Part shown: one piece after another, positions 1 to 12,343 of the stretch
How positions within the stretch are numbered: position 1 is the stretch's first letter
Layout: each line of letters opens with the position of its first letter
DNA from: a virus
Direction: 5' to 3' (one strand)
UHGV virus genome: UHGV-0377305
Length of the DNA: 12,343 bases
Notes under the pieces: generated by a model
The model's database searches: none
What the model saw: the letters and a program-made list of their open reading frames with translations, nothing else
What the model was told of the DNA's origin: nothing
Translations under genes and position numbers: made by a program

Positions 1-1002
1 ATCACCGAGCTGTTCAATATTGCGGGTTGGTATTTTGTAGAGCTGGGCGATTTTCCCCAGACTTTCTGACAGTTCATCAGCTGGCAGCTCAAAGGCTGTT
101 GCCGCCTTTGCTGCCGTACTGGCGAAGGCCAGCAGGTCACGTTTCTGGTCCTCCCAGCTGTCGTCAGGGTTTGCCACATTCATGCGCGCACCACCTTCAA
201 CCAGTGCGGCGAAGTCCACAGCACCGTTTTCCATTGGCAGCTGTTCACTGGCAGCTTTGATGGCATCCTGCATTTCGTAAAAACGCGCAGTGCGGTTGCC
301 ATTATCGTCACGCAGACCATTGACCTGCTTTGCCACACCTTTCATGGCATCTTCCATGCTGGTATAGCTTTTTACCGCCGCCATCACTGGCGCGCCCATT
401 GCCAGCCCTGCAGCCGTGGTGGTGGCTCCGGCTCCTGCGATGCGATCGCGCACTTCAAGCCGTCTTGAGTATTGTTCTCTGGCAGCGTTCATCCGTGCCT
501 GTTGTTCACCCAGACGTTTAAGTGCTTTTTTCTGGCCCGCCAGTGCCTGACGAGTTTCTTCGGCATTTTTCTTAAGTTCTCGCTGGGCACTACTGAGTTG
601 TCTGGTATCAATCCCTGATTCTTTAAGTGCCTGACGTTGTCTCTGGACCGCCCCCAACAAGCCGTTATAGGTCTGCTGAAGTTCCTGTACTCGTGTTTTG
701 GCCTGACTGAATAACTTTGCCTGCGCGGCGGTTGGCCTGTTAGTGGCAGCAAATTGTGTGGCGAGTTTTGCCGCCTCTTCGCGGGCTGCGTTCAGGTTGT
801 TGGCTGTTATGGCTAGTTGCGAGCGCGTCTTGCGAAATTCATCAATTCTGCCAGCCTGCTTATTCAGTTCTTTGAGGCTGTTTCGGGTATTCTGAATTGC
901 GCCAGCCAGCTCTTTCGAACTGGCCTGTGCAGCACGGAATGGGCGGGTGAGTTTGTCAACCGCATTAAGAATGACCTGCAGGCGCAGGTTATTATCACTC
1001 AT
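1..1002 (-). CDS. T: Tail tape measure protein (P2 gpT-like), N-terminal 334 codons; C-terminal part lies beyond the window start
   Basis: Minus-strand ORF opens with ATG (rc of 1000-1002) and reads MSDNNLRLQVILNAVDKLTRPF... with no stop to position 1 (1002 nt, exactly 334 codons). It sits immediately downstream of E/E' with the E' stop overlapping this ATG, as in P2. It is absent from the ORF track only because it runs off the window. Coiled-coil, Ala/Gln-rich composition fits a tape measure. Confidence 0.75.
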   Translation of the reverse strand, partial: MSDNNLRLQVILNAVDKLTRPFRAAQASSKELAGAIQNTRNSLKELNKQAGRIDEFRKTRSQLAITANNLNAAREEAAKLATQFAATNRPTAAQAKLFSQAKTRVQELQQTYNGLLGAVQRQRQALKESGIDTRQLSSAQRELKKNAEETRQALAGQKKALKRLGEQQARMNAAREQYSRRLEVRDRIAGAGATTTAAGLAMGAPVMAAVKSYTSMEDAMKGVAKQVNGLRDDNGNRTARFYEMQDAIKAASEQLPMENGAVDFAALVEGGARMNVANPDDSWEDQKRDLLAFASTAAKAATAFELPADELSESLGKIAQLYKIPTRNIEQLGD

Positions 1003-1431
1003 CGTTGGCCCCGCTTCTCTGAATCGCTTTATACCGCCATTCCAGCACTTCGGTCAGCGGCATAACGTCAGTAACGGATGGCGGCCAGTGAAAGATGGTG
1101 GCGATATCAGCCACCAGATCGTCAACCGTCAGGCTGTCGGTAAACCGGCAAGCACCGACTTCTTCAACAAAAAAGTGACAACCTCAACCGACATGGCAGT
1201 GAGATCTGCCGGGTCCATCTCTGCAATTTCCTGTGCAGTCAGTGCCGGACTGGAGATGCGGGGGATCACGGTCATCATCGCGTTCACATCCATATCCATA
1301 ATGGCCTGCAGGCGTGTACCGCGCAGCGCACCGGACTGCGGTTTACGCAGCACAATTTCGGTGATTTCTGTTTTACCGCGCTTGATGGGGGTATCCAGTT
1401 GAATAGTCTTTTCAGTCTGCTTATCGCTCAT
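995..1431 (-). CDS. gpE+E' fusion made by programmed -1 ribosomal frameshift (tail assembly chaperone, long form)
   Basis: The zero-frame codons TTT TTG inside T_TTT_TTG (minus-strand rc of 1168-1174) allow -1 slippage. The -1 frame then stays open for about 58 codons (FFVEEVGACRFTDSLTVDDLVADIATIFHWPPSVTDVMPLTEVLEWRYKAIQRSGANDE) and ends at a TGA (rc of 995-997) that overlaps the ATG of T. This is the same architecture as P2 E/E+E' and lambda G/GT. Confidence 0.65.
1129..1431 (-). CDS. E: Tail assembly chaperone gpE (P2 E-like)
   Basis: 100-aa minus-strand ORF (MSDKQTEKTIQLDTPIKRG...) between FII and T. It ends shortly after a TTTTTTG heptamer. Position and size match P2 gene E. Confidence 0.8.
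   Translation of the reverse strand: MSDKQTEKTIQLDTPIKRGKTEITEIVLRKPQSGALRGTRLQAIMDMDVNAMMTVIPRISSPALTAQEIAEMDPADLTAMSVEVVTFLLKKSVLAGLPTA
1168..1174 (-). other. Slippery heptamer T_TTT_TTG for -1 programmed frameshift (E to E')
   Basis: Plus strand reads CAAAAAA at 1168-1174, so the minus strand reads TTTTTTG in the X_XXY_YYZ register of the E reading frame. Confidence 0.65.
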
Positions 1432-1456
1432 TTTGCTGTCCTGTCAATTGGGTTCT

Positions 1457-1474
1457 GGCGCGGTATCCCGCGCC
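1457..1474 (-). other. Intergenic stem-loop between FII and E (7-bp GC stem, 4-nt loop)
   Basis: GGCGCGG-tatc-CCGCGCC on the plus strand, a perfect inverted repeat in the 54-nt FII-E spacer. No U-tract follows on the coding (minus) strand, so it is probably not a terminator. It may be an mRNA stability or processing element. Confidence 0.3.
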
Positions 1475-1485
1475 GTTCAGATATA

Positions 1486-2001
1486 TCAGAGGCCGAGGGC
1501 GTTGCGGTGCGCTTCCATCAGGTCCACACCGTCTACAATTTCCACCATGTTGATAAGGTCCACTTCATAGAGCACCTCACCATTGATGGTCAGCTTCGCG
1601 TAGCTGTTGGTACTGGTCACTTTGGTGGTGTTGCTTTCGCCCGTCTTCCACTCGCCGGAATCCACTTCTTTGTGACGTCCACGCACCACAAGCTCCACGG
1701 CCTGCACTTCCCCGGTATCGTCACGCTGGATAGAGCCGGTAAAGCGCAACTGGATACCATCCACCGTGGCTTTGCCCATCTGCTTAAACAGCAGCAGTTC
1801 AGTACCACCAATGGAAAATTCCGTATCCAGTGCGCCGTCATCCAGCCCCAGATCCACATCCACTGCACCCGGCATTCCGCCGCCGCGATACTTCTCATAT
1901 TTGCGGGTAAATTTCGGCAGCGTCAGCGACTCAACGATCCCCTGCCAGTTGTTCCCGTCATTAAACAGGTTCAGGTGTTTTAATTTGCGTGGTAAAGCCA
2001 T
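1486..2001 (-). CDS. FII: Tail tube protein (P2 gpFII-like)
   Basis: 171-aa ORF MALPRKLKHLNLFNDGNNWQG...GGGMPGAVDVDLGLDDGALD..., which closely resembles P2 FII as I recall it. It lies directly downstream of the sheath gene and has an ATG start. Confidence 0.9.
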   Translation of the reverse strand: MALPRKLKHLNLFNDGNNWQGIVESLTLPKFTRKYEKYRGGGMPGAVDVDLGLDDGALDTEFSIGGTELLLFKQMGKATVDGIQLRFTGSIQRDDTGEVQAVELVVRGRHKEVDSGEWKTGESNTTKVTSTNSYAKLTINGEVLYEVDLINMVEIVDGVDLMEAHRNALGL

Positions 2002-2010
2002 GTTGTCCCC

Positions 2011-3183
2011 TTACGCGCTGACCTGGCTGGAGAAATTAACCAGGTACTGATCGGTGATGCGCTGACGCAGCATCAGGTTTTCAAGTGGCGGCACTGGCGT
2101 GTAGTCGTAGTCGATGGTGAGTTTTCCGGCTTTCAGCGTGTCTTTGTCGTTCACCGACTCATCCAGCCAGCAATCACCACCAATGAGATAGCCCTGACTG
2201 ACCAGGCTGCGCATTTTGGCGCGGATACCCTCGATAATGTCGCGGGCCAGCGACGGATTCAGCGGTTTATCCACCGCCCACATGTGCGCTTCTGCCATCG
2301 TGTCCGTCAGCACCTGCGCCGTGCGGGTGTAGTTTTCGAAGGCAAAGAGCGGGTCATCACTCAGGCAGCGGGAACCCCAGAAGCGAAAACCGTCTTTGCG
2401 GATAAGGGTGGTGACGTCGTTCTGGTTCAGCAGTCCCGCATCGGTTGCCGGGTCCTGCAGATCCCAGAACACATCAGCAGAAATTCCGGTGACACCGTTA
2501 ACGCCCACGTTGGACAGGCTTTTGTGCCATCCGGTCTGCTCGTCAATTTTGGCGCGCAGACCAAGCGCACGGGCGGTGGCATAAGCCGTTGCTTCGGCAT
2601 TCAGCACCGTGTCCCAGCCAGTAAAGTCGGGCCAGATCAGCATTCCTTCACGCTGACTGAAGTTTTCACGGTAAGTGATTGCTTCCTGCACCGTCTTGCA
2701 ACCATACGCTGACAGGTAAGCAAATCCACGCAGGCTTTGCGCCACACTCAGCAACTCAGTAGCTACCGCCTTCGTGTCGTGACCTGGCACGCCGAGAATG
2801 CGCGGTTTAACGCCGAGCTGTGACTGGGCAGATAACAGGGCTTTCATGCCTGTTTTTTTACCTTCAGCGGTCACTGCGCCGATGATATTGGTCGTGGTTT
2901 CGTCTTCCGTTTCACCCTGCGGCACACGCACAACAATGGTCACGGGTTTTGCCTGGTCAGCGATGGCATCCAGCGAACGAGCCAGCGTGCCTGACTCACC
3001 CGCTTTACCGCTGGCAGTCAGCACATCAGTGATCAGCACGGGTTTATTAAGAGGAAACATTTTTGCATCGGCATCATCGCCCGTGCAGACCATACCCACG
3101 ATGGCGGTGCTCACCGTGGTAATGGATCGGGTGCCTTCGTTGACTTCAACAACGCGCACCCCGTGGTGGTAATCCTGAGCCAT
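2011..3183 (-). CDS. FI: Contractile tail sheath protein (P2 gpFI-like)
   Basis: 390-aa [36 protein letters not shown]...[31 protein letters not shown]...[24 protein letters not shown], matching conserved P2 FI blocks from memory. A strong SD (AGGAGG, rc of 3193-3198) lies 9 nt upstream of the ATG. Confidence 0.92.
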
Positions 3184-3259
3184 AGTGGCGAACCTCCTGA
3201 TTGGATTAGGCTTCGCCCTATGTTGAAGTGATTGTGCCTGACAAACAGCTAAGCGCAGT

Positions 3260-3277
3260 TGTACCGTTATTCACACA
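3260..3277 (-). promoter_or_regulatory. Candidate Ogr/Delta-type late promoter activator site (TGT-N12-ACA dyad) upstream of FI
   Basis: Minus strand reads TGT-GTGAATAACGGT-ACA (plus-strand tgt at 3260-3262 and aca at 3275-3277, 12-nt spacer), centred about 85 nt upstream of the FI ATG, in the pin-FI intergenic region. P2 late promoters carry this dyad near -55. The motif is short and can occur by chance. Confidence 0.4.
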
Positions 3278-3325
3278 AAATGACGGTATTTGTCTGCTTT
3301 CAGGGATAATCAAAATAAAGCTGAT

Positions 3326-3892
3326 TCAGGGAGATTTATTGTTCTTATTTGCCGGAAATTTTCGATAAATGGTAGAAACGCCTACATCAAAAATCAGTGC
3401 AATACGCTGTCTTGATTCTCCGTCCTCGAGTAAACGCCCAATCTGTGCCCACTGTTCGCTGGTCAACTTAGGACGGCGTCCACCTACTCTGCCTTTAGCA
3501 CGAGCTGCAGCCAGCCCCGCCCTGGTACGTTCAACTATCAGTTCGCGTTCCATTTCAGCCAGGGCACCCATGACATGAAAAAAGAAACGGCCCATTGGGG
3601 TGCTGGTATCAATACTGTCAGTCAGGCTTCGGAAATTCACGCCACGCTGGCGCAGCTCTTCTATCAGCGTAACAAGATGCCGCATACTGCGCCCCAGTCT
3701 GTCCAGCTTCCAGACAACCAGCGTGTCTCCTGCCGATAGTGTCCTGAGCAGCTTTTTCAGCCCCGGTCTGTCGGACTTGGTGCCACTGATTTTATCCTCA
3801 AAAATCCGCTCACATCCCGCACAGTTCAGTGCATTGCGTTGCAAATCGGTGTTCTGGTCATTTGTTGACACGCGTACATAGCCAATAAGCAT
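3326..3892 (-). CDS. Serine site-specific DNA invertase (Gin/Pin/Cin/Hin family)
   Basis: ORF MLIGYVRVSTNDQNTDLQRNAL...DRLGRSMRHLV...GRFFFHVMGALAEMERELIVERTRAGL... carries the resolvase/invertase catalytic N-terminus (the serine in YVRVSTNDQ) and a C-terminal HTH. The track ORF starts two codons earlier (MIM...); the second ATG matches the paralog's start. Confidence 0.9.
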   Translation of the reverse strand: MLIGYVRVSTNDQNTDLQRNALNCAGCERIFEDKISGTKSDRPGLKKLLRTLSAGDTLVVWKLDRLGRSMRHLVTLIEELRQRGVNFRSLTDSIDTSTPMGRFFFHVMGALAEMERELIVERTRAGLAAARAKGRVGGRRPKLTSEQWAQIGRLLEDGESRQRIALIFDVGVSTIYRKFPANKNNKSP

Positions 3893-3947
3893 GATCATCC
3901 CCCTGAATAAAAACCGGAGATGATGCCAGTTAGCCGTTATCTCTGCA

Positions 3948-3973
3948 TTTTCATAAACGTCGGTTTACGGGAA
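3948..3973. other. gix/cix-like 26-bp crossover site A (inverted partner of site B)
   Basis: TTTTCATAAACG-TC-GGTTTACGGGAA. The inner half, extended to a 17-mer CGGTTTACGGGAAACGG (3961-3977), is the exact reverse complement of 5370-5386. The site resembles the Mu gix consensus (TTCCTGTAAACCGAGGTTTTGGATAA, from memory). It lies between the invertase start and the Sv cassette. Confidence 0.6.
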
Positions 3974-4327
3974 ACGGTAAATAAGGCCGCTGATGCCCTG
4001 CCATCGGGGGGAACCGCCGTGGCAGCAAACAGACTCGCCACCCCAAGAAATATTAATGGTGTTCCTTTCGACGGGACGCGGGATATAAACATTACGTCAG
4101 GAATGCCGGAATCAACGGCCAATCAGCGTTATGTTACAGGGGTAAGACTGGGAGCGCAGGCATTAAGCGGCGTACTGGAATATAATTACTCCCTGTCATC
4201 AGGAAATGTGATTACCGGTTTTAAGACTGACGGAGACTGGGAAATGCGTGGTGGTGATGACCGTGTTTATTACAGACAGATACAATATTGTATTAATGGG
4301 AATTGGGTATCCGCTGCAAGTATTTAA
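3962..4327 (+). CDS. Tail-fibre C-terminal variable cassette (Sv); no constant N-terminal part attached in this orientation
   Basis: The open frame begins inside crossover site A (GLRETVNKAADALPSGGTAVAANRLATPRNINGVPFDGTRDINITSGM...). The first roughly 50 residues are homologous to the start of the opposite cassette, then the two diverge. The only in-frame ATGs upstream (3920, 3923) have no usable SD spacing. Reported as a cassette, not an independent gene. Confidence 0.6.
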   Translation, partial: GLRETVNKAADALPSGGTAVAANRLATPRNINGVPFDGTRDINITSGMPESTANQRYVTGVRLGAQALSGVLEYNYSLSSGNVITGFKTDGDWEMRGGDDRVYYRQIQYCINGNWVSAASI

Positions 4328-4447
4328 TTAACGGCTCATGGCGTACGGCAGGCAGCGCCTGATATATGCGTTATCTCAGACAACCCCTGTCCGTATATAG
4401 CGATAGTATTATTCCTGTTTTTATCATTGATTCACATGGTGATGTTT

Positions 4448-4969
4448 ATGCAACTGATTAATGTTAAACGATATTACCCGGAAAATACCCTCTATGGTAA
4501 TGATGTACAGTATTTTCAGAGTGAAGATGGTAAGGATTTCTACGAGTCCCTGCCATTATTCACAAAAAAATATAAACTTTGTATAACACCTGACAGCGGC
4601 ATTATCTGCTCAATATCACAGGACGCTTCGGCGCTGTATCCTGCGGGGTTCTCTGTGGTTGAAGTCGACGAACTCCCTGAAGGTGCTGATATTTCGGGTA
4701 ACTGGAAGTTTGATAATGGCGTGATCTCCCGTATTCCGGTTAACTACGCAAGAAAACTGGAAGCAATGCGCCAGTCATATCTTAATCAGGCATATGAAAA
4801 AATTAATGACTGGAGAACAGAATTACAGCTGGGCACCATCAGTGATGAAGACAGAGCCGCACTTACCCGATGGATGGCATACATCAGTCAGGTGAAAAAA
4901 ATGGAACTACCAGCGATTAAAAACAAAGCTGAATTTGACGACATTAAATGGCCGGAGAAGCCTGAATAA
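4448..4969 (+). CDS. Tail fibre assembly protein (Tfa/gpG/U-like chaperone)
   Basis: ORF MQLINVKRYYPEN...SEDGKDFYE...GFSVVEV...DWRTELQLGTISDEDRAALTRWMAYISQV... has the conserved Tfa layout and the C-terminal Tfa motif. It lies immediately downstream of Sv on the same strand. The track ORF starts at an upstream TTG (4427); the ATG at 4448 is the more likely start. Confidence 0.8.
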   Translation: MQLINVKRYYPENTLYGNDVQYFQSEDGKDFYESLPLFTKKYKLCITPDSGIICSISQDASALYPAGFSVVEVDELPEGADISGNWKFDNGVISRIPVNYARKLEAMRQSYLNQAYEKINDWRTELQLGTISDEDRAALTRWMAYISQVKKMELPAIKNKAEFDDIKWPEKPE

Positions 4970-4972
4970 CGT

Positions 4973-4996
4973 AAAGGGTGCTTATCGCACCCTTTT
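4973..4996. terminator. Bidirectional intrinsic terminator between convergent tfa and Sv'
   Basis: Perfect 9-bp stem AAAGGGTGC-ttatc-GCACCCTTT followed by T on the plus strand, with a T-rich stretch on the minus strand. It sits in the 34-bp gap between the tfa stop (4969) and the Sv' stop (5004). Confidence 0.6.
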
Positions 4997-5003
4997 CCTT
5001 TAA

Positions 5004-5385
5004 TCAGACGGATGAAACTGTGCGCCAGGCATTACCGATATATATCTGCACCGGACGGTAATAAACGCCTCCGATATTATCGGCTGAATTTCTCCCGGTC
5101 TCCTGCACGTTAATACCTGAAAGCATACAACCGGAAGGCGCGCCATAACTCCAGGACATTTCATTACCTCCGGGTGAATGGTAACTCTGGGCACCAAGCT
5201 GAACGTTGCGAACGTATTTGTTATCAGCAGCAGCTTCGGTCATACCGGAGGTAATGTTGATATCCTGCGTTCCGTCAAAGGGAACACCATTAATTGTGTG
5301 GGCATTTGCCAGCCTGTTCGCGGCAACGGCCGTTCCGTTCGATGGCAGGGCATTCGCCGCCCTGTTTACCGTTTCCCGTAAACCG
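5004..5385 (-). CDS. Alternative tail-fibre C-terminal variable cassette (Sv'), start-less
   Basis: The minus-strand frame opens just inside site B, immediately after an in-frame TGA, and reads NLGLRETVNRAANALPSNGTAVAANRLANAHTINGVPFDGTQDINITSGMTEAAADNKYVRNVQLGAQSYHSPGGNEMSWSYGAPSGCMLSGINVQETGRNSADNIGGVYYRPVQIYIGNAWRTVSSV. Its N-terminal part is homologous to Sv and the C-terminus is different. No start codon or SD is at the cassette head. Confidence 0.6.
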
Positions 5386-5399
5386 AGGTTTCAGGGATG
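5374..5399. other. gix/cix-like 26-bp crossover site B
   Basis: TTCCCGTAAACC-GA-GGTTTCAGGGAT, matching Mu gixL (as recalled) at about 20 of 26 positions. It lies in inverted orientation to site A, 54 bp upstream of the second invertase ATG. Confidence 0.65.
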
Positions 5400-5452
5400 C
5401 CGTATATCTGCTTTAAAAAGCATTTCCACCTCTTTTTAAGGAAGGTAAATAC

Positions 5453-6013
5453 ATGCTGATTGGCTATATACGCGTATCAACAAATGACCAGAACACAGGT
5501 TTACAAAGAAATGCGCTGGAATGTGCAGGATGTGAGCAGATTTTTGAAGACAAAATGAGTGGTAAAACGACGCAGCGGCCGGGACTGAAGCGGGCACTGA
5601 AGAAACTAAAACCCGGCGACACACTGATGGTCTGGAAACTGGACAGGCTGGGGCGCAGTATGCGCCACCTTGTTGCGCTGACAGATGAATTACAGCAACA
5701 GGGGATAAATTTTCGTAGTCTTACTGACAACATTGATACGTCAACCCCCATGGGGCGCTTCTTTTTTCACATAATGGGTGCGCTGGCAGAAATGGAGCGT
5801 GAATTGATTGTCGAACGGACACGGGCTGGTCTTGCTGCTGCCCGTGAAAGGGGACGAACCGGCGGCAGACCCCGTCGTCTCACGCAGGAACAATACGAGC
5901 AGGTCGGGCGTTTACTGGCCGGGGGTGTCAGCCGAAGACAGGTGGCACTTATTTTTGATATCGGCCTTTCAACCCTTTATCGTTATTATCCTGCGAGCGT
6001 TTCGGAAAAATAA
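5453..6013 (+). CDS. Serine site-specific DNA invertase (Gin/Pin/Cin/Hin family), second paralog
   Basis: ORF MLIGYIRVSTNDQNTGLQRNALECAGCEQIFEDK...DRLGRSMRHLV...GRFFFHIMGALAEMERELIVERTRAGLAAARERG..., with an SD AAGGAAGG upstream. It is about three-quarters identical to the 3326-3892 invertase by eye (not computed) and is transcribed away from the cassette region. Confidence 0.9.
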   Translation: MLIGYIRVSTNDQNTGLQRNALECAGCEQIFEDKMSGKTTQRPGLKRALKKLKPGDTLMVWKLDRLGRSMRHLVALTDELQQQGINFRSLTDNIDTSTPMGRFFFHIMGALAEMERELIVERTRAGLAAARERGRTGGRPRRLTQEQYEQVGRLLAGGVSRRQVALIFDIGLSTLYRYYPASVSEK

Positions 6014-6112
6014 GACGCTCTCTTTGTTGGGCCTTTACTGAATTAACGCAAAATGGCGTTTATCGGTCTGTGGATATGATAATTCTGTTTATTCAGGAAC
6101 AGGCTGATTATT

Positions 6113-8152
6113 ATGACGTCCAAATGGGTTCAACTATCATCAATGCCCGGAAACTTTACTGTTAAAGTTTCCGGTGGTACAGCGGCATTTCTTGAGGCTC
6201 CCTTTCCTCCGGCCGAAACAAAAGGAGGAATGACATTTGCTGACTGTCTCATCAGTTTTAATACACGGGATTGCCTGTGGGTAAGGCCAGTATCCGGTGA
6301 TCCGAGCGTGGAAATTACCGGTGCGGGTATTGGTGCTGTCATTCCGTTAAGTGCTGATGTTGCCGGTACTGCTGAACCGTCAGACTGGGATAATGCTGAA
6401 ACACATACCCGTCCGTCAGGAAATGAAACTGCTTCCAGCTCCCCTTCCTGGTATTACGTGGTGGTTCTTGCTGGTCAGTCAAACGGGATGGCCTACGGTG
6501 AAGGTCTGCCGCTGCCGGAGACATATGACCACCCCGAACCGCGTATTATGCAGTTAGCCCGTCGCAGTACAGTCACGCCGGGAGGTAAAGCCTGTCAGTA
6601 TAACGACATCATTCTGGCCGACCACTGTCTGCATGATGTGCAGGATATGAGTGGAAAAAATCACCCGAAAGCGGATGTGGCTAAAGGGCAATATGGCACC
6701 GTGGGTCAGGGGCTTCACATTGCCAAAAAACTGCTGCCGTTTATTCCGGCAGATGCGGGGATTCTGCTGGTTCCCTGCTGCCGTGGTGGTTCTGCATTCA
6801 CGGCGGGTGCTGACGGCACGTACAGTGACAGCACGGGTGCTTCAGAGGACTCAGCCCGCTGGGGTGTGGATAAGCCGCTGTATAAGGACTTAATCAGCCG
6901 GACAAAAGCGGCACTGGCGAAGAACCCGAAAAACCGCCTGCTTGCTGTGGTGTGGATGCAGGGCGAGTTTGATATTGATGCGAAGCCGACGGAGCATTCC
7001 GCGCTGTTTCTGGCGATGGTGGAAAAATTCCGCGCAGACCTGGCTGAACAGGCGGAACAGTGTACCGGTGGCAGTGCTGCTGGCGTTCCGTGGATTTGTG
7101 GCGATACCACGTATTTCTGGAAACAGAAAAACGAACAGGCATACCAGGCAATCTATGACGGCTACAAAAATAAAACAGATAAAAACATTCATTTCGTCCC
7201 ATTAATGACAGATGAAAATGGCGCGAATGTACCCACCAACAATCCGACAGAAGACCCGGATATTGAATCCATTGGTTATTACGGCTCAACGTGGCGTAAC
7301 AGTGCCGCCACCTGGACATCTGCGGGCCGGGCCAGCCATTTCAGTTCATGGGCACGTCGTGGGATTATTTCCGACCGTCTGGCCACGGCTGTTCTGACTC
7401 ATGCAGGGCGAACCACAGTAAAAGCCGATGTTCCATCTTCTGAAACTGAAGCACCAGTGCCGTCACCTTCAGAAACTGAAGCAGTAACCACAACACTGCT
7501 GTCTTACCGTGTCAGTGAGTCAGAAGGAAATCTGAAAGCCCAGGGCTGGGAGCCGGCTGGCGGTAAAGCTGAAATTATCAGTGATGCAGGAGGCACAGGT
7601 GGTAAGGCAATGAAACTGACCAAGGAAACAGGTAAATCATCCTGGTATCTGGATCATGATGCCGGTACTGGTGCTGAACTGCTGAAAAATGGTGGTTTAA
7701 TCAGTTGTCGTTTTAAAGTACCTGGCGACCTGGTGGCAAACCAGTATGTCATGGCGCTTTACTGGCCGGTTTCCTCTCTGCCGCAGGGTGTCACCCTGAC
7801 AGGGGATGCAGGGAATAATCTGCTGGCATCGTTCTACATCCAGACAGACGCAAAAGACCTGAATGTGATGCACCACAATGCAAAAGTGGCAACAAATAAC
7901 CAGAAACTGGGAACCTTTGGTGTATTTGATAATGAATGGCATACGCTGGCCTTCCGTTTTGCAGGAAATAACAGCCTTCAGGTTATTCCGGTTATTGATG
8001 GTCAGGATGGTGCCGCGTTTACCCTGACGCAGTCACCAGTAGGAACTTTCCCGGTGGACAAACTCCGCGTAACGGATATCACCAAAAATGCAACTTACCC
8101 GGTGCTGATTGACAGCATTGTGGTGGAAGTGAAAAAAGCGGTAACAGAATAA
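6113..8152 (+). CDS. Putative SGNH/sialate O-acetylesterase-domain protein (NanS / prophage NanS-p-like) with a C-terminal probable carbohydrate-binding domain
   Basis: 679-aa ORF. The central region carries VVVLAGQSNGMAYGEGLPLP...LLVPCCRGGSAFT...VVWMQGEFD...WICGDTTYFW, i.e. the GQSN block and downstream blocks typical of sialate O-acetylesterase (SASA/DUF303) domains. A Ser/Thr/Pro/Glu linker (SETEAPVPSPSETEA) precedes an approximately 230-aa C-terminal domain. Function is assigned from motifs only. Confidence 0.6.
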   Translation: MTSKWVQLSSMPGNFTVKVSGGTAAFLEAPFPPAETKGGMTFADCLISFNTRDCLWVRPVSGDPSVEITGAGIGAVIPLSADVAGTAEPSDWDNAETHTRPSGNETASSSPSWYYVVVLAGQSNGMAYGEGLPLPETYDHPEPRIMQLARRSTVTPGGKACQYNDIILADHCLHDVQDMSGKNHPKADVAKGQYGTVGQGLHIAKKLLPFIPADAGILLVPCCRGGSAFTAGADGTYSDSTGASEDSARWGVDKPLYKDLISRTKAALAKNPKNRLLAVVWMQGEFDIDAKPTEHSALFLAMVEKFRADLAEQAEQCTGGSAAGVPWICGDTTYFWKQKNEQAYQAIYDGYKNKTDKNIHFVPLMTDENGANVPTNNPTEDPDIESIGYYGSTWRNSAATWTSAGRASHFSSWARRGIISDRLATAVLTHAGRTTVKADVPSSETEAPVPSPSETEAVTTTLLSYRVSESEGNLKAQGWEPAGGKAEIISDAGGTGGKAMKLTKETGKSSWYLDHDAGTGAELLKNGGLISCRFKVPGDLVANQYVMALYWPVSSLPQGVTLTGDAGNNLLASFYIQTDAKDLNVMHHNAKVATNNQKLGTFGVFDNEWHTLAFRFAGNNSLQVIPVIDGQDGAAFTLTQSPVGTFPVDKLRVTDITKNATYPVLIDSIVVEVKKAVTE

Positions 8153-8158
8153 AAAAAA

Positions 8159-8187
8159 TCCCGCCGGTCATGATATGGCTGGCGGGA
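8159..8187. terminator. Hairpin after the esterase gene (A8 tract upstream; U-tract only on the minus strand)
   Basis: TCCCGCCGG-(11-nt loop)-CTGGCGGGA, a 9-bp stem with one G-U pair. On the plus strand it is preceded by AAAAAAAA and not followed by a T-run. On the minus strand it is followed by T8. It may act bidirectionally. Confidence 0.3.
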
Positions 8188-8301
8188 GCTACCTAACCCA
8201 TAAAGGAAAATAAAAATACTCCCGAAGGAGTAGTTACCAGTCACTTCGTCATGTTTTTACCCGATAACGAATTATGTAGTCAATATCAAAGGTAAGGTTA
8301 T

Positions 8302-8484
8302 ATGACATTCGTTCATACAATGCTGCTTTATTTCTGCGCTGTGGTCAGTGCGTTATATCTGGTGAGCGGCGGTTATAAGGTCATCAGAAATTATATTCGC
8401 CGCAAAATTGATGACGCAGCAGCCGAAAAGCTCAGTAAAACAGCACAGGCACCATCATCCCCAAACGACCCGACCCCGCTCTGA
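8302..8484 (+). CDS. Hypothetical small membrane protein (60 aa, one predicted TM helix)
   Basis: ATG start with AAGG upstream. Hydrophobic N-terminus MLLYFCAVVSALYLVSGG followed by a basic and polar tail. No family recognised. Confidence 0.5.
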   Translation: MTFVHTMLLYFCAVVSALYLVSGGYKVIRNYIRRKIDDAAAEKLSKTAQAPSSPNDPTPL

Positions 8485-8519
8485 TAACGGGGCAATATAC
8501 CTGCAAAAGGAGAATATTC

Positions 8520-8765
8520 ATGCCAGAGATTAAAGGCACGGTTACTGAAGAGCTTGTCAAACAGGCACTTTATTCTGAAGAAGTGAACCGCGTGCTGAAG
8601 GCGCAGGTTCGCAAGGATTTTGAGGCACAAATCGACGCATATGTTGATGAAGTGCTGGCCCGAATGGTTGGCCGTTCTCCGGCTGAAAACAGCACGGAAA
8701 ATGCTCCTCAACCCGTAGAGCAACCAGAGCCGGTTCAGCCCGGAACTGACGGTACTATGATGTAA
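8520..8765 (+). CDS. Hypothetical protein (81 aa, acidic Pro/Glu-rich C-terminus)
   Basis: Strong SD AAGGAG 8 nt upstream of the ATG, and a perfect hairpin immediately downstream. No family recognised. Confidence 0.6.
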   Translation: MPEIKGTVTEELVKQALYSEEVNRVLKAQVRKDFEAQIDAYVDEVLARMVGRSPAENSTENAPQPVEQPEPVQPGTDGTMM

Positions 8766-8774
8766 CAATACCGA

Positions 8775-8805
8775 CCGGCAGGTTTCCCTGCCGGGTGAAT
8801 TTGTT
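8775..8805 (+). terminator. Probable intrinsic terminator after the 81-aa ORF
   Basis: Perfect 8-bp stem CCGGCAGG-tttc-CCTGCCGG followed by the T-rich GTGAATTTGTT, 10 nt after the stop codon. Confidence 0.45.
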
Positions 8806-9119
8806 AATGCACGTTTTGTGTATTTTCCCTCTGGGGAGAACAGGCAGGGCATATCAGCATCCTGAAACAGGAAGCATTTTTTGGTTTGTATGTCTTGCCA
8901 TTTTGAGATCGAGAACGGCGATAGATGAGCTGTAAGGGAGTCTTACAGGCAGGGTAAACAGGCTCTTTATCCATGATAAAGATCTCCTTTTTATGCATCT
9001 CTGCTTTACAGGAGACCGGGGAATATCATAGGATACGCCACGAGCTCGAAGTAAAGCATTGATGCAAAATTGTCTAAATCGGCCCAGAATAGTTCGCGCT
9101 ATCTGGGTCGCCCTTTATG

Positions 9120-9155
9120 TATGTAGTATCCCATTGATTTGAAACATACTACATA
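9120..9155. promoter_or_regulatory. 10-bp inverted repeat with 16-bp spacer (candidate operator)
   Basis: TATGTAGTAT-(16 nt)-ATACTACATA in the AT-rich region about 230 bp upstream of com. Confidence 0.25.
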
Positions 9156-9197
9156 TACGCACAATCCTACCTTCACTGTATAAAAAGTCAATAAAAT

Positions 9198-9340
9198 GAT
9201 CATTTTATGATCGTTTTCACCACCTAACTCTTCGTTTTCTTTAAGTAAATAATCACCGCCCTGAATCATTGTTGATGACTTTTCAATCTATTTGTTGTAT
9301 CAATTAAACAAACCGAATCGATCGTTTTTGTCGATCGATT
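9198..9340. promoter_or_regulatory. GATC (Dam-site) cluster with palindromes upstream of com, a candidate methylation-sensitive control region
   Basis: Four GATC sites in about 140 bp (9198, 9209, 9320, 9333). Two sit in the palindrome AAAATGATCATTTT and its neighbour, and two in the 9-bp-arm inverted repeat AATCGATCG-tttttgt-CGATCGATT (9316-9340), about 45 bp upstream of the com ATG. This recalls the GATC/OxyR region of the Mu mom promoter. Confidence 0.35.
9293..9310 (+). promoter_or_regulatory. Candidate Ogr/Delta-type late-activator dyad (TGT-N12-ACA) upstream of com
   Basis: TGT-TGTATCAATTAA-ACA, centred about 82 nt upstream of the com ATG. This is the same dyad geometry as upstream of FI. 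Chance occurrence is possible. Confidence 0.3.
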
Positions 9341-9383
9341 GCATGAGAAAGGCATCAACAACAAAGCAGGAGGTTATGCGGCC

Positions 9384-9569
9384 ATGTATCGAAACATACG
9401 GTGCCGACACTGCAATAAGCTACTGGCACGGGCCAGTTTCAGTTATCTGGAAGTAAAATGTCCGCGCTGCAAAACCCTCAATCAAATCACATCTCAGAGC
9501 GCCACAGAGCACCCCACATACACAAGGAAATCCTGCCGTGGGGAACAAGAAACATTACTTTCAGTCTGA
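9384..9569 (+). CDS. com: Com-like zinc-ribbon translational activator (Mu Com family)
   Basis: 61-aa ORF MYRNIRCRHCNKLLARASFSYLEVKCPRCKTLNQITSQSATEHPTY... with the Com-type CxxC...CPRC zinc ribbon and an EHPT motif, as recalled for Mu Com. AGGAGG lies 9 nt upstream of the ATG. The 3' end overlaps the start of the downstream gene by 32 nt, as com overlaps mom in Mu. The track ORF begins at an upstream TTG (9339). Confidence 0.75.
   Translation: MYRNIRCRHCNKLLARASFSYLEVKCPRCKTLNQITSQSATEHPTYTRKSCRGEQETLLSV
9512..9543 (+). promoter_or_regulatory. Possible translation-inhibiting stem that sequesters the MTase GTG start (candidate Com target)
   Basis: CCCCAC (9512-9517) can pair with GTGGGG (9538-9543). 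The start codon lies in the 3' arm and the SD in the 20-nt loop. This is analogous in position to the stem-loop in mom mRNA that Com unwinds. The stem is only 6 bp. Confidence 0.3.
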
Positions 9570-10590
9570 TAAGTCACTAACCTATGGTTCAGTATGCAGT
9601 GGTATTGAAGCTGCGACAGTAGCCTGGAGCAATCTTGGCTGGAAAGCCAGATGGTTCAGTGAAATAGAGGACTTCCCGTCAACACTTCTTTCATATCGCT
9701 GGCCCCATATACCAAATCTTGGTGATATGGCTTTGCTTGCGCCTCGTATCAGGGATGGGCTTATTGAAGCACCAGATATTCTTGTAGGTGGAACTCCGTG
9801 TCAGGCATTCAGTATGTCAGGCAAACGAAAAGGCCTTTCAGATCCACGGGGGCAGTTAACACTGTCTTTTGTTGAACTGGCGAATCAGATAGATACCGTT
9901 CGGGCATCGCTCAATAAATCCCCCTCAATAATCGTATGGGAAAACGTCACAGGAGTTTTAAGTAGCCATGACAATGCATTCGGTCATTTTCTTGGTGCGC
10001 TGGCCGGAGCAGGTTGCGCATTACAGCCAGCAAGGAAAAGATGGGCAAACGCTGGTGTTGTGTCTGGACCATCGCGTATCGTCGCCTGGCGAGTACTTGA
10101 TGCCCAATATTTCGGAGTCGCCCAGGCTCGCAGAAGAGTGTTTGTTGTGGCAAGTGCTGGAAAAAGGCTCGATCCCGGAAAGGTATTATTTGAGTTCCCG
10201 CCTGTGTCGCAGGGCGATAAAAACTATTACGGAAAGAAGAAAAAATCCGAATCCCTTCTTGATCAAGGCATTGAAGGAAAATTGCACCGATATTGCCTTG
10301 AAGCATTGCCAAAACGAACAGGCACAGTAATAGCTGGCTATAACGGAACAACTAACCAGGACATGACTATGTCTGGTGGGCTCATAGTTGAAAGAGCGCC
10401 ATATTCAAGGGTTCGTAGGTTGACGCCAACCGAATGCGAGAGGCTACAAGGTTTTCCCGATGGATATACAGATATTCCATGGAAAAATTCATCTCCAGCT
10501 CATCGTTATAAGGCCATTGGAAATTCAATGCCTGTACCGGTCATGAAATGGATTGGTCGAAGAATACAGGAAGCGTTAAACGAAGTTTAA
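9538..10590 (+). CDS. DNA (cytosine-5)-methyltransferase
   Basis: 350-aa ORF with canonical C5-MTase blocks: GGTPCQAFSMSG (PCQ catalytic motif IV), IIVWENVTG (ENV motif VI), QARRRVFVVA (motif VIII), RRLTPTECERLQGFPDGYT and AIGNSMPVPVMKWI (C-terminal motifs). The N-terminal GSVCSGIEAA stands in place of motif I. GTG start at 9538 with AAGGAAA 8-9 nt upstream; no alternative start exists in frame after the upstream stop at 9454. Confidence 0.88.
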   Translation: MGNKKHYFQSDKSLTYGSVCSGIEAATVAWSNLGWKARWFSEIEDFPSTLLSYRWPHIPNLGDMALLAPRIRDGLIEAPDILVGGTPCQAFSMSGKRKGLSDPRGQLTLSFVELANQIDTVRASLNKSPSIIVWENVTGVLSSHDNAFGHFLGALAGAGCALQPARKRWANAGVVSGPSRIVAWRVLDAQYFGVAQARRRVFVVASAGKRLDPGKVLFEFPPVSQGDKNYYGKKKKSESLLDQGIEGKLHRYCLEALPKRTGTVIAGYNGTTNQDMTMSGGLIVERAPYSRVRRLTPTECERLQGFPDGYTDIPWKNSSPAHRYKAIGNSMPVPVMKWIGRRIQEALNEV

Positions 10591-10608
10591 ACCTAAGCAA
10601 AAGACATT

Positions 10609-10914
10609 ATGAAGTTGGTTTTTGTGCCGTTAAAAGATGTCTTTAAGGAGTGCAAAGGAAAGCGCCAATTTAGTATCAAAAAAGATGCTTATCGGCGCTT
10701 TTCATCGGTATCAAATGAAATGCAAATCTGTATCAAAAAAATCGCCGCGCTATATACCCGAAAAGAAAACGTATTTACCAGTTGGGTGATGCGATTGCTG
10801 ATTGTTGTAAGTCTCGCCTGGACGGGGTGGGCTATTACCCTGGTCTTTTATCTACTGACCGTTATTGCCTTCTGGATCACCCGTAATCAGATGGCGCAAC
10901 AGGTAGCAGCATGA
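10609..10914 (+). CDS. Hypothetical protein; the C-terminal hydrophobic part may be a LysA-like remnant fused to unrelated N-terminal sequence
   Basis: 101-aa ORF. The N-terminal half is AT-rich, hydrophilic and lacks a clear SD. The C-terminal roughly 40 aa (WVMRLLIVVSLAWTGWAITLVFYLLTVIAFWI) is membrane-like and ends overlapping the lysB start (ATGA), the position lysA occupies in P2. Confidence 0.4.
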   Translation: MKLVFVPLKDVFKECKGKRQFSIKKDAYRRFSSVSNEMQICIKKIAALYTRKENVFTSWVMRLLIVVSLAWTGWAITLVFYLLTVIAFWITRNQMAQQVAA

Positions 10915-11339
10915 ACCGGTTACTGCTGGTTGTGCTGGCGTTATTACTGGCGGCGCTGGGCTGGCAGACGTGGCGGCTGGCTGATGCCAGCCAGACCATC
11001 AGCACGCAGGCAGACGAGCTGCAGAGCAAAAGCCAGGCACTGGCAAAGAGCAACAGCCAGCTTATCAGCCTGTCTATTCTGACTGAAACCAATAACCGGG
11101 AGCAGGCGCGGCTCTATGCCGAAGCAGAACAGACCAGCGCGCTGCTGAGACAACGACAACACCGGATCGAGGAACTGAAACGTGAGAACGAGGATTTACG
11201 CCGCTGGGCTGATACTCCTTTGCCTGCTGACATTATCCGGCTGCGGGAACGCCCCACACTCACCGGAGGTGCAGCTTACCGTCAGTGGTTGTCCGCGAGT
11301 GACGCCGTGTCGGCTGGATCAGGCAGCGCCGCGCACTAA
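10911..11339 (+). CDS. lysB: LysB (Rz-like inner-membrane spanin)
   Basis: 142-aa ORF with an N-terminal TM helix (LLLVVLALLLAALGW) followed by a coiled-coil, Gln/Glu/Arg-rich periplasmic region. It lies upstream of R and S with lysC embedded in the +1 frame, the P2 arrangement. Confidence 0.75.
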   Translation: MNRLLLVVLALLLAALGWQTWRLADASQTISTQADELQSKSQALAKSNSQLISLSILTETNNREQARLYAEAEQTSALLRQRQHRIEELKRENEDLRRWADTPLPADIIRLRERPTLTGGAAYRQWLSASDAVSAGSGSAAH

Positions 11340-11472
11340 CGGTGATCTGAATGCGTTGCTGGATGAAACGGAGGCCGCCTGGGCGGTCTGTGCAGACAAA
11401 GTGGATATGATTATTGCGTGTCAGGAGCGAAACAGTGAACAAACCACAATCCCTGCGCCACGCCCTCAATAA
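11182..11472 (+). CDS. lysC: LysC (Rz1-like outer-membrane lipoprotein spanin), embedded in and extending beyond lysB
   Basis: 96-aa ORF in a different frame from lysB, with signal peptide and lipobox (LLCLLTLSG-C) and a Pro-rich mature part. GTG start. Confidence 0.7.
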   Translation: MRTRIYAAGLILLCLLTLSGCGNAPHSPEVQLTVSGCPRVTPCRLDQAAPRTNGDLNALLDETEAAWAVCADKVDMIIACQERNSEQTTIPAPRPQ

Positions 11473-11866
11473 AGCAGTGCCTTATGTCCGCAATAACCCG
11501 GACAAACTGCATCTGTTTGTGGATAACGGTTCGCTGGTTGCCACGGGGGCCAGCTCCATGTCGTGGGAGTACCGTTACACCCTGAACGCGGTGATTGAGG
11601 ATTTCAGCGGCGACCAGAATCTGCTGATGGCCCCGGTTTTGCTGTGGCTGCGTGATAACCAGCCCGATGCCATCAATAACCCGGCGTTACGGGAAAAACT
11701 ATTCACCTTTGAGGTGGATATTCTGCGCAACGATGTCTGTGATATCAGCCTTAACCTGCAACTGACGGAGCGTGTGCTGGTCAGCACTGACGGTAGTGTG
11801 TCGAGCGTTGAAGCTATAGCGGAACCTGATGAACCTGAAGAAATGTGGACGGTGAAACGTGGCTGA
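11435..11866 (+). CDS. R: Tail completion protein R (P2 gpR-like)
   Basis: VNKPQSLRHALNKAVPYVRNNPDKLHLFVDNGS...LNAVIEDFSGDQNLLMAPVLLWLRDNQPD...LQLTERVLVS resembles P2 gpR as recalled. The likely start is GTG 11435 with AGGAG 8 nt upstream; the track ORF starts at TTG 11414. Confidence 0.85.
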   Translation: MNKPQSLRHALNKAVPYVRNNPDKLHLFVDNGSLVATGASSMSWEYRYTLNAVIEDFSGDQNLLMAPVLLWLRDNQPDAINNPALREKLFTFEVDILRNDVCDISLNLQLTERVLVSTDGSVSSVEAIAEPDEPEEMWTVKRG

Positions 11867-12305
11867 ACTGCAGAAAGTGGACGACTGGCTGAGTGCCTTG
11901 CTGGCGAATCTGGAACCAGCCGCCAGAAGCCGCATGATGCGCCAGCTGGCGCAGGAACTGCGCCGGACACAGCAGCAGAACATCAGGATGCAACGCAATC
12001 CTGATGGCAGCAGCTATGAACCGAGGCGAGTAACAGCACGCAGTAAAAAAGGCCGTATCAAACGGCAGATGTTTACAAAACTTCGCACCACAAAATACCT
12101 GAAAACCGCCGCCAGCGAGGATTCTGCCAGCGTGCAGTTTGAAGGTAAGGTGCAGCGCATTGCCCGCGTTCACCATTATGGCCTGCGTGATCGCGTCAGC
12201 CGCAAAGGACCGGAGGTCCGTTACGCAGAGCGTCGCCTTCTGGGTGTAAATGATGATGTTGAGGCAATGACCCGCGACATGATTCTGCAATGGTTGGCGG
12301 GGTGA
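11859..12305 (+). CDS. S: Tail completion protein S (P2 gpS-like)
   Basis: MAELQKVDDWLSALLANLEPAARSRMMRQLAQELRRTQQQNIRMQRNPDGS... resembles P2 gpS. The GTG start overlaps the R stop (GTGGCTGA), which suggests translational coupling. Confidence 0.85.
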   Translation: MAELQKVDDWLSALLANLEPAARSRMMRQLAQELRRTQQQNIRMQRNPDGSSYEPRRVTARSKKGRIKRQMFTKLRTTKYLKTAASEDSASVQFEGKVQRIARVHHYGLRDRVSRKGPEVRYAERRLLGVNDDVEAMTRDMILQWLAG

Positions 12306-12343
12306 TTTTTGTATCAGCAGTGATACAAGTTGCAGCACTGCCG

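Follow-up and report, generated by a model that had tools for sequence, protein, structure and literature searches.

P2-type late-promoter sites and the com-methyltransferase operon of a nested Mu-like prophage in the viral genome UHGV-0377305

Late promoters of P2-like phages carry an activator site with the consensus TGT-N12-ACA and depend on the activator Ogr (Christie and Calendar, 1985; Julien and Calendar, 1995; both as cited in PMC3931495). The sequence analyzed here is a stretch of 12,343 nucleotides (nt) of the viral genome UHGV-0377305 (the window). Exact matches to this dyad lie upstream of the tail sheath gene FI (3260-3277, TGTACCGTTATTCACACA) and upstream of com (9293-9310, TGTTGTATCAATTAAACA), which is followed by a DNA methyltransferase gene. 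An earlier note on this DNA (the original prediction) placed the same late-activator dyad at both positions and proposed that it ties the methyltransferase, taken as cargo of a P2-like element, to the phage late genes. A motif scan confirmed the coordinates of both matches exactly.

Two prophages are represented in the window. Bases 1-3981 are approximately 97% identical to the P2-family phage Cartapus (Elveevirus) and contain the tape measure, E, FII, FI, and DNA invertase genes. A Mu-like phage matches bases 5224-10754 with 96-99% identity; in some genomes the match begins at 3956. Two Stx-phage records (including LC727895) label this phage “inserted Bacteriophage Mu-like phage,” and position 10754 of the window corresponds exactly to where it ends on the right. 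In Escherichia coli O157:H7 Sakai, the matching com region is annotated as “prophage Sp18, Mu-like phage.” The window thus carries, on the plus strand at 3956-10754, the right end of an Sp18-like Mu-type transposable prophage with 96-99% identity to the LC727895 insert and to E. coli prophages including Sakai Sp18. For bases 10755-12343, the match is to the P2-like Klebsiella phage 4LV2017 (96.9% identity); it begins within the “putative membrane protein” coding sequence at the lysA position of that phage and runs through lysB, R, and S. By these homologies, the right end of the Mu-like prophage interrupts the lysA-like membrane-protein gene of a P2-like lysis cassette. An endolysin gene was considered as the Mu insertion site and rejected, as the interrupted gene is the lysA-like membrane-protein gene.

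Gene order in the Sp18-like part is G segment, gin, a gene for a DUF6645/SASA protein, DUF1378, DUF826, a gene divergent from com, com, the methyltransferase gene, and the right terminus. The com gene (9384-9569, plus strand) encodes a 61-amino acid (aa) zinc-ribbon translational regulator (Pfam PF10122, Zn_ribbon_Com, E=5.8e-13; PHROG “gpCom control of modification”). The C-5 cytosine DNA methyltransferase gene (9538-10590, plus strand; Pfam PF00145, E=1.6e-42) shares its first 32 nt with the end of com and takes the place of mom. An order of gin, accessory genes, com, modification gene, and right end is standard, as in Mu. Sister Sp18-like prophages with the same promoter carry mom at the methyltransferase position. 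By gene content and homology, the com-methyltransferase operon is the terminal com-mom-type operon of an Sp18-like Mu prophage. It is not cargo of the P2 element, as the original prediction had it, because 5224-10754 is a Mu-like prophage with its right end at 10754. The second gene behind the com promoter is interchangeable, being a C5 methyltransferase here and Mom in other Sp18-like prophages (L024, L025, and L026); P2-like phages such as Chuche carry a different methyltransferase as second gene, between ogr and int (L006, 8794-9736).

In Mu, Dam, OxyR, C, and Com all take part in controlling mom (PMC3378877; PMC4461284). The window operon resembles Mu com-mom in several respects. In both, a Com zinc-ribbon gene overlaps the downstream modification gene between gin and the right end, and a stem contains the second gene's start codon. 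Upstream are Dam sites of the GATCGAT type with 13-base pair (bp) spacing, like Mu sites II and III. In the window, the GTG start of the methyltransferase (9538) is paired within a CCCCAC/GUGGGG stem whose loop holds the ribosome-binding site (region 9510-9545). The arrangement is like the structure that blocks mom translation in Mu until Com relieves it, and suggests that the start is sequestered and translation is Com dependent; the overall fold in this region is not better than that of shuffled sequence (z = -0.74). The operons also differ. The second gene in Mu is Mom, whereas here it is a C5 cytosine methyltransferase. The window has only two GATC sites, which are 27 bp closer to com than in Mu and so overlap the promoter instead of lying upstream of a C site; because of this shift, there is no room for the Mu C-site elements. 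The TTAT-N6-ATAA C site (centered near -43.5), the suboptimal 19-bp spacer with its T6 run, and the TAAGAT -10 of Mu Pmom are all absent. What the original prediction drew as an analogy to C-activated mom is really homology. As a candidate Mu-type C site, only a non-conserved CCG was found at a suggestive distance from com, and it was rejected, being TCG in most group A variants (the groups are defined below).

The dyad scan covered the whole window and was compared with 200 shuffled sequences. Four TGT-N12-ACA matches were present against 3.67 +/- 2.07 expected by chance, and 105 of the 200 shuffles reached at least four. The count therefore shows no enrichment, in keeping with the caution in the original prediction that a few chance matches were to be anticipated in 12 kilobases (kb). 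The distances of about 82-85 nt to the start codons were also borne out: FI runs on the minus strand, and the center of its dyad precedes the ATG by 85.5 nt, while for com (ATG at 9384) the distance is 82.5 nt. The two dyads are the same only in their six core bases. Their spacers and inner half-site bases are unrelated, and the arms of the com dyad extend to 6 bp (TTTGTT-N10-AACAAA, 9291-9312). A third match lies within the FII coding sequence (1950-1967), and the fourth precedes gene V. From conservation and scoring, the four matches are two real Ogr-type sites (FI and PV), one chance match in FII, and the match at com.

The FI dyad reads TGTGTGAATAACGGTACA on the minus strand. FI itself (2011-3183, minus strand) encodes a 390-aa tail sheath protein approximately 97% identical to that of Cartapus and is the first gene of the F operon; it is followed on the same strand by FII (1486-2001; the Cartapus tail tube protein is approximately 97% identical), E (1129-1431), and the 5' part of T. 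The dyad is identical in Cartapus (15568-15585), which also has TGT-N12-ACA between P and O and upstream of V, 55.5 nt from the V ATG. Among FI upstream regions from viral contigs, the dyad was found in 81 of 81 (65 unique sequences, several of them mutually unalignable). Across these loci its first T lies at -87 to -94; the spacers differ, but TGT and ACA never do. In the P2 reference record, pO/pP, pV, and pF have annotated activator-binding sites and mapped transcription starts. The center of the pF site there is 57-59 nt from the start and 83 nt from the ATG of FI. The FI dyad is in the equivalent position. On this conservation and placement, and with a half-site score of +10.0 (see below), 3260-3277 is a genuine conserved P2-type late-promoter activator site (PF) of the ordinary kind. 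The original prediction was right about this site.

The activator site of PV (TGTATCAGCAGTGATACA, 12310-12327, plus strand) was missing from the sites listed in the original prediction. It lies 5 nt past the S stop codon, and gene V is beyond the end of the window. Its arms are 8 bp long (TTGTATCA-GCAG-TGATACAA). Phage 4LV2017 carries this dyad at the equivalent place, with 55.5 nt between its center and the V ATG, a distance shared with Cartapus and P2, and a dyad was present upstream of V in 79 of 79 V loci, at -63 to -66. Judged by position and conservation, 12310-12327 is the PV late-promoter activator site.

Both sites are consistent with P2 late regulation. The late promoters of P2 (PP, PO, PV, and PF) and their activators (Ogr, Delta of P4, and B of 186) provide the closest comparison, as the FI and V dyads likewise have the TGT-N12-ACA form and head equivalent operons. 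The distance to the FI ATG is 83 nt in P2 and 85.5 nt here, and the distance to the V ATG is 55.5 nt in both. The sites of P2 itself are imperfect in the right arm (CCA or CAA), whereas the dyads here are perfect. Unlike in P2, the F and O/V operons are opposed in the window, owing to a probable inversion (discussed below). From P2, we infer that an Ogr-type protein would bind and activate at PF and PV: a zinc-finger activator of the Ogr/Delta/B family would occupy the dyad approximately 55 bp upstream of the start and recruit RNA polymerase to a promoter whose own -35 and -10 are poor. The ogr gene is outside the window; in Cartapus, an Ogr-like protein is encoded downstream of D.

A symmetric half-site model was built from FI sites with the core excluded and was checked on independent PV and PO/PP sites. 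The half-site consensus is t-TGT-R-Y-S-R-t; at the position following TGT, 93% of half-sites have a purine and 3% have T. FI sites score 4.0-16.4 (39 unique). Cartapus PO/PP and PV score 8.6 and 10.6, the window PV scores 3.4, and 16 independent unique PV sites range from -0.1 to 11.6. In five phage genomes, no other TGT-N12-ACA match scores above -0.9, and the match in FII scores -13.4. The com dyad scores -7.4, which is within background and below all 55 unique true sites (39 FI and 16 PV, at least -0.1). Its inner half-site bases (TGT-TGT) break positions that are 93-99% conserved in true sites. A 30-position full-length weight matrix from FI sites was also tried and gave -7.5 for com, but it gave -5.0 for the genuine PV site and was discarded as overfitted to the FI lineage. 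A six-base dyad match is insufficient to call an Ogr site, and the half-site model separates true matches from chance matches.

Comparison with relatives is useful for judging whether the com dyad is maintained. The upstream regions of com were compared in 48 unique sequences (loci L107-L175) forming groups A, B, and B', which are Mu-like, and group C, which is P2-like. Sp18-like prophages that sit in Stx phages or at unrelated chromosomal loci, with no P2 context, have the com dyad unchanged. Among close relatives (group A), it is broken in 10 of 37 loci: nine loci of L111-type prophages have ATA in place of ACA (also seen in JE86), and one nucleotide is deleted in L130. Groups B and B' (8 unique Mu-like loci with Com 71-76% identical, such as that of Citrobacter braakii) lack the dyad, as does group C, which consists of P2-like phages carrying com-methyltransferase cargo between ogr and int. 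Group C phages such as Escherichia phage Chuche (PP925824) have what the original prediction envisaged, a P2-like genome with a com-methyltransferase cassette in it. Three GATCGAT sites and a TATCAT -10 are present in their com promoters, and TGT-N12-ACA is absent. The window cassette, by contrast, lies in a Mu-like phage. The 39-kb Mu-like genome has six TGT-N12-ACA matches against nine expected, and the com match is the only intergenic one. This genome has no second copy of the com dyad and no TTGT-Nx-ACAA relative at its late promoters, and a tblastn search found no Ogr homologue in the Mu-like phage. A small CxxC open reading frame (ORF; 8804-8998) was considered as an Ogr candidate and rejected; it matched no family and belongs to the gene divergent from com, as its frameshifted tail. 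None of the IHF, Fis, FNR, CRP, and TyrR consensuses fits the com dyad when compared by eye.

The region between the com dyad and com contains a different kind of element. A palindrome (AATCGATCG-N7-CGATCGATT, 9316-9341) holds two Dam sites (GATC at 9320 and 9333) spaced 13 bp apart, and an OxyR-type half-site (ATCGTTTTTGTCGAT, 9321-9335) overlaps the predicted -35 and spacer of the com promoter. Every group, whether Mu-like (A and B) or P2-like (C), has the GATC pair at -64/-51 (or -65/-52) relative to the com ATG. ATCGTTTTTGTCGAT matches seven of the 10 specified positions of the OxyR half-site ATAGnTnnnAnCTAT, and groups B and C match eight. A second half-site 22 bp upstream (9299-9313) matches five positions here, six to eight in most relatives, and two in one group B' locus; the known OxyR-binding region of Mu scores 7 and 6 on the same positions. 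The com dyad overlaps this weaker, promoter-distal half of the presumptive OxyR tetramer site (9299-9335). Alignment to the TATACT/TATCAT -10 of groups B and C places a weak -10 at approximately 9344-9350 in the window and the start at approximately 9356. A sigma-70 scan found no plus-strand promoter near com, and a terminator scan flagged the GATC palindrome as terminator-like on the minus strand only.

In P22 gtr, pairs of GATC sites 13 bp apart lie inside OxyR half-sites, and methylation has been shown experimentally to block OxyR binding (PMC2909390). The com promoter resembles the Dam/OxyR epigenetic switches of P22 gtr and E. coli agn43 in having a GATC pair 13 bp apart in a 15-bp half-site that overlaps the promoter. 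GATC3 and GATC4 of P22 gtr are at -46 and -33, and the sites here are at approximately -36 and -23. Unlike those switches, the window has only one GATC-bearing half-site, with a weak partner. The shared arrangement suggests that a Dam/OxyR control module travels with the com cassettes of Mu-like and P2-like phages, and the invariant Dam-site pair points to Dam/OxyR control as their common logic.

The best overall explanation, and one we consider highly probable, is that real P2 late sites are present at FI and PV, while the com dyad belongs to a separate, nested Mu prophage and its likeness to them is coincidental. Its resemblance to an Ogr site is limited to TGT and ACA and is most likely due to chance. 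An Sp18-like Mu-type prophage inserted into the lysA-like gene of a P2-like (Elveevirus-like) lysis cassette, bringing a com-mom operon in which a C5 methyltransferase replaces Mom and which has its own presumptive control module. This module comprises two Dam sites in an OxyR-like palindrome overlapping the -35 and spacer, a weak -10, and a stem-sequestered methyltransferase start. By homology with Mu mom and analogy with P22 gtr, we infer that the operon would be under OxyR/Dam and Com control. The proposal that the methyltransferase is wired into the P2 late regulon is thus not supported: the operon is Mu-like, the dyad is unconserved in relatives and absent from true P2 cargo, and its half-site score is in the background range. 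That proposal would have put a cargo methyltransferase under a phage late activator, and the evidence shows no new regulatory link. What is present is of known kinds, an ordinary P2-type late promoter and a standard Mu-like terminal modification operon.

Several observations weigh against a purely coincidental dyad at com. The dyad is centered at approximately -54 to -57 from the predicted start, compatible with an activator at about -55, and its center is approximately 44 nt from the -10, as in P2 PF. It forms a 6+6 palindrome, and homology to JE86-type prophages begins just upstream of it; the palindrome and this homology edge indicate that the dyad may be functional for some protein. Group A alone has the dyad and also has the poorest -10 of the groups, which would fit dependence on an activator. 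The OxyR match in the window (5/10 and 7/10) is not significant by sequence alone, and the half-site model was trained on enterobacterial P2-like phages only.

Among the alternatives, the one that survives best holds that the com dyad has no function and is an AT-rich remnant of a decayed distal GATC/OxyR element, with its symmetry left over from a palindromic element. The dyad center (9301.5) falls at ATC|AAT; when the spacing to GATC II is fixed at 18 bp, this lines up with the ATC|GAT in the distal GATCGAT of group C and Mu. Relatives also tolerate point changes and the loss of 1 nt in the dyad. The register of the alignment with Mu is ambiguous, however, so that base-by-base homology of the dyad is not claimed, and an alternative register puts ATCAATTAAA opposite an identical string in Mu. 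An ATTAAA(T/C)AAAT block is also conserved between groups A and B, contrary to simple decay. We regard a remnant as somewhat unlikely, though it keeps a real share of the probability.

It is less probable still, and in our judgment clearly unlikely, that the com dyad binds a factor of the Sp18 lineage, such as a Mor/C-family late activator working from approximately -55 and compensating for the degenerate -10 of group A. The 6+6 palindrome would suit such a site, as would its location at the 5' edge of a block conserved between prophages with different upstream genes and the pairing of dyad with poor -10 in group A only. The Mu-like genome shows one Mor/C-family gene (L003, 10369-10794), its product 39% identical to Mu C, whereas Mu has two, and Mu mom is C dependent. 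Mor/C proteins act from approximately -43.5, not from -55, which counts against this possibility, and the dyad is broken in more than a quarter of group A loci and has no second copy in the genome. The Plys and PI promoters of the phage share a different, non-palindromic motif (CCGCAAAnCCnGCC, at 10799 and 18726 of L003), which is absent near com. These shared-motif regions are probably the C-dependent late promoters of the Mu-like phage. Because the C site, T6 run, TAAGAT, and CCGCAAAnCCnGCC are absent near com, dependence of com on a Mor/C-family protein cannot be demonstrated. The regions upstream of lys and I (L003, 10799-10812 and 18726-18739) share yCTGAwATyCCGCAAArCCyGCC, followed approximately 13 nt on by TTAyGCT.

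That both dyads are Ogr/Delta sites, with the nested Mu-like operon trans-activated as part of the P2 late regulon, is very improbable, as the TGT-N12-ACA core with T at -1, the P2-like distances to the predicted start and -10, the lack of good sigma-70 hexamers, and the physical nesting of the two prophages are set against a Mu-like operon whose dyad is unchanged in Stx-phage and chromosomal copies, unconserved in relatives, and absent in P2-like com-methyltransferase cargo, against a score below every true site and a motif count equal to chance, and against a Mu-like phage with no Ogr homologue by tblastn. A specific form of this idea, to which we give scarcely any credence, is that Ogr of the co-resident P2-like prophage trans-activates Sp18-like com-methyltransferase or com-mom operons through a lineage-specific dyad at approximately -55 that replaced the distal OxyR/Dam element and compensates for the degenerate -10. 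If it were true, DNA modification by one prophage would be switched on when the other is induced.

Invertible tail-fibre segments are another point of contact between the two prophages. The segment in the window (3955-5391) is bounded by inverted repeats (3955-4038 and 5308-5391) and has the features of the Gin/Cin/Hin type: inverted sites with an AAACC-NN-GGTTT core, alternative tail-fibre C-termini, and an adjacent resolvase-family invertase. This one segment is flanked by two invertase genes. The P2-like gene (3326-3898, minus strand; Pfam Resolvase and HTH_7) corresponds to Cartapus gp23 and lies between the PF region and the crossover site, and the Mu-like gin (5453-6013) is on the plus strand. 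The left crossover site (AAACG-TC-GGTTT, 3955-3966; partner at 5380-5391) is a hybrid. In a three-way comparison, it follows Cartapus (AAACG-TT-GGTTT) up to the central dinucleotide, and from the central dinucleotide on it follows the Sp18-like prophage of strain FHI_NMBU_11 (AACC-TC-GGTTT), where the site is inside the tail-fibre gene. The F operon and lysB-R-S are co-directional in Cartapus and 4LV2017, whereas in the window they are opposed (F on the minus strand and lysB-R-S on the plus strand). The simplest explanation of these comparisons would be inversion by a serine invertase between crossover sites of the two nested prophages. The window junction was not found in any complete E. coli genome searched, and an assembly chimera could also account for the hybrid junction. 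The window would record an invertase exchange between the tail-fibre switches of nested prophages, a neat but minor example of cross-talk.

The remaining genes of the window are of less direct concern. The P2-like lysis and tail-completion genes (10755-12305, plus strand; 96.9% identity to 4LV2017) comprise the 3' fragment of the lysA-like membrane-protein gene (to 10914), lysB (10911-11339), R (11414-11866), and S (11859-12305), all on the plus strand. A 101-aa ORF (10609-10914) is a fusion that spans the junction of Mu-like and P2-like sequence at 10754/10755. An Rfam scan of the window gave no match. Between gin and com, a 679-aa protein (6113-8152, plus strand) has SASA-type carbohydrate esterase and DUF6645 domains; it is kept in Sp18-like prophages and is possibly a surface-glycan deacetylase, judging from its domains. 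The gene divergent from com (8804-9269, minus strand) is frameshifted. Its 56-aa ORF (9099-9269) covers residues 1-53 of a 135-aa PHROG family and no more; in strain FHI_NMBU_11, the annotation likewise gives the gene as a frameshifted pseudogene.

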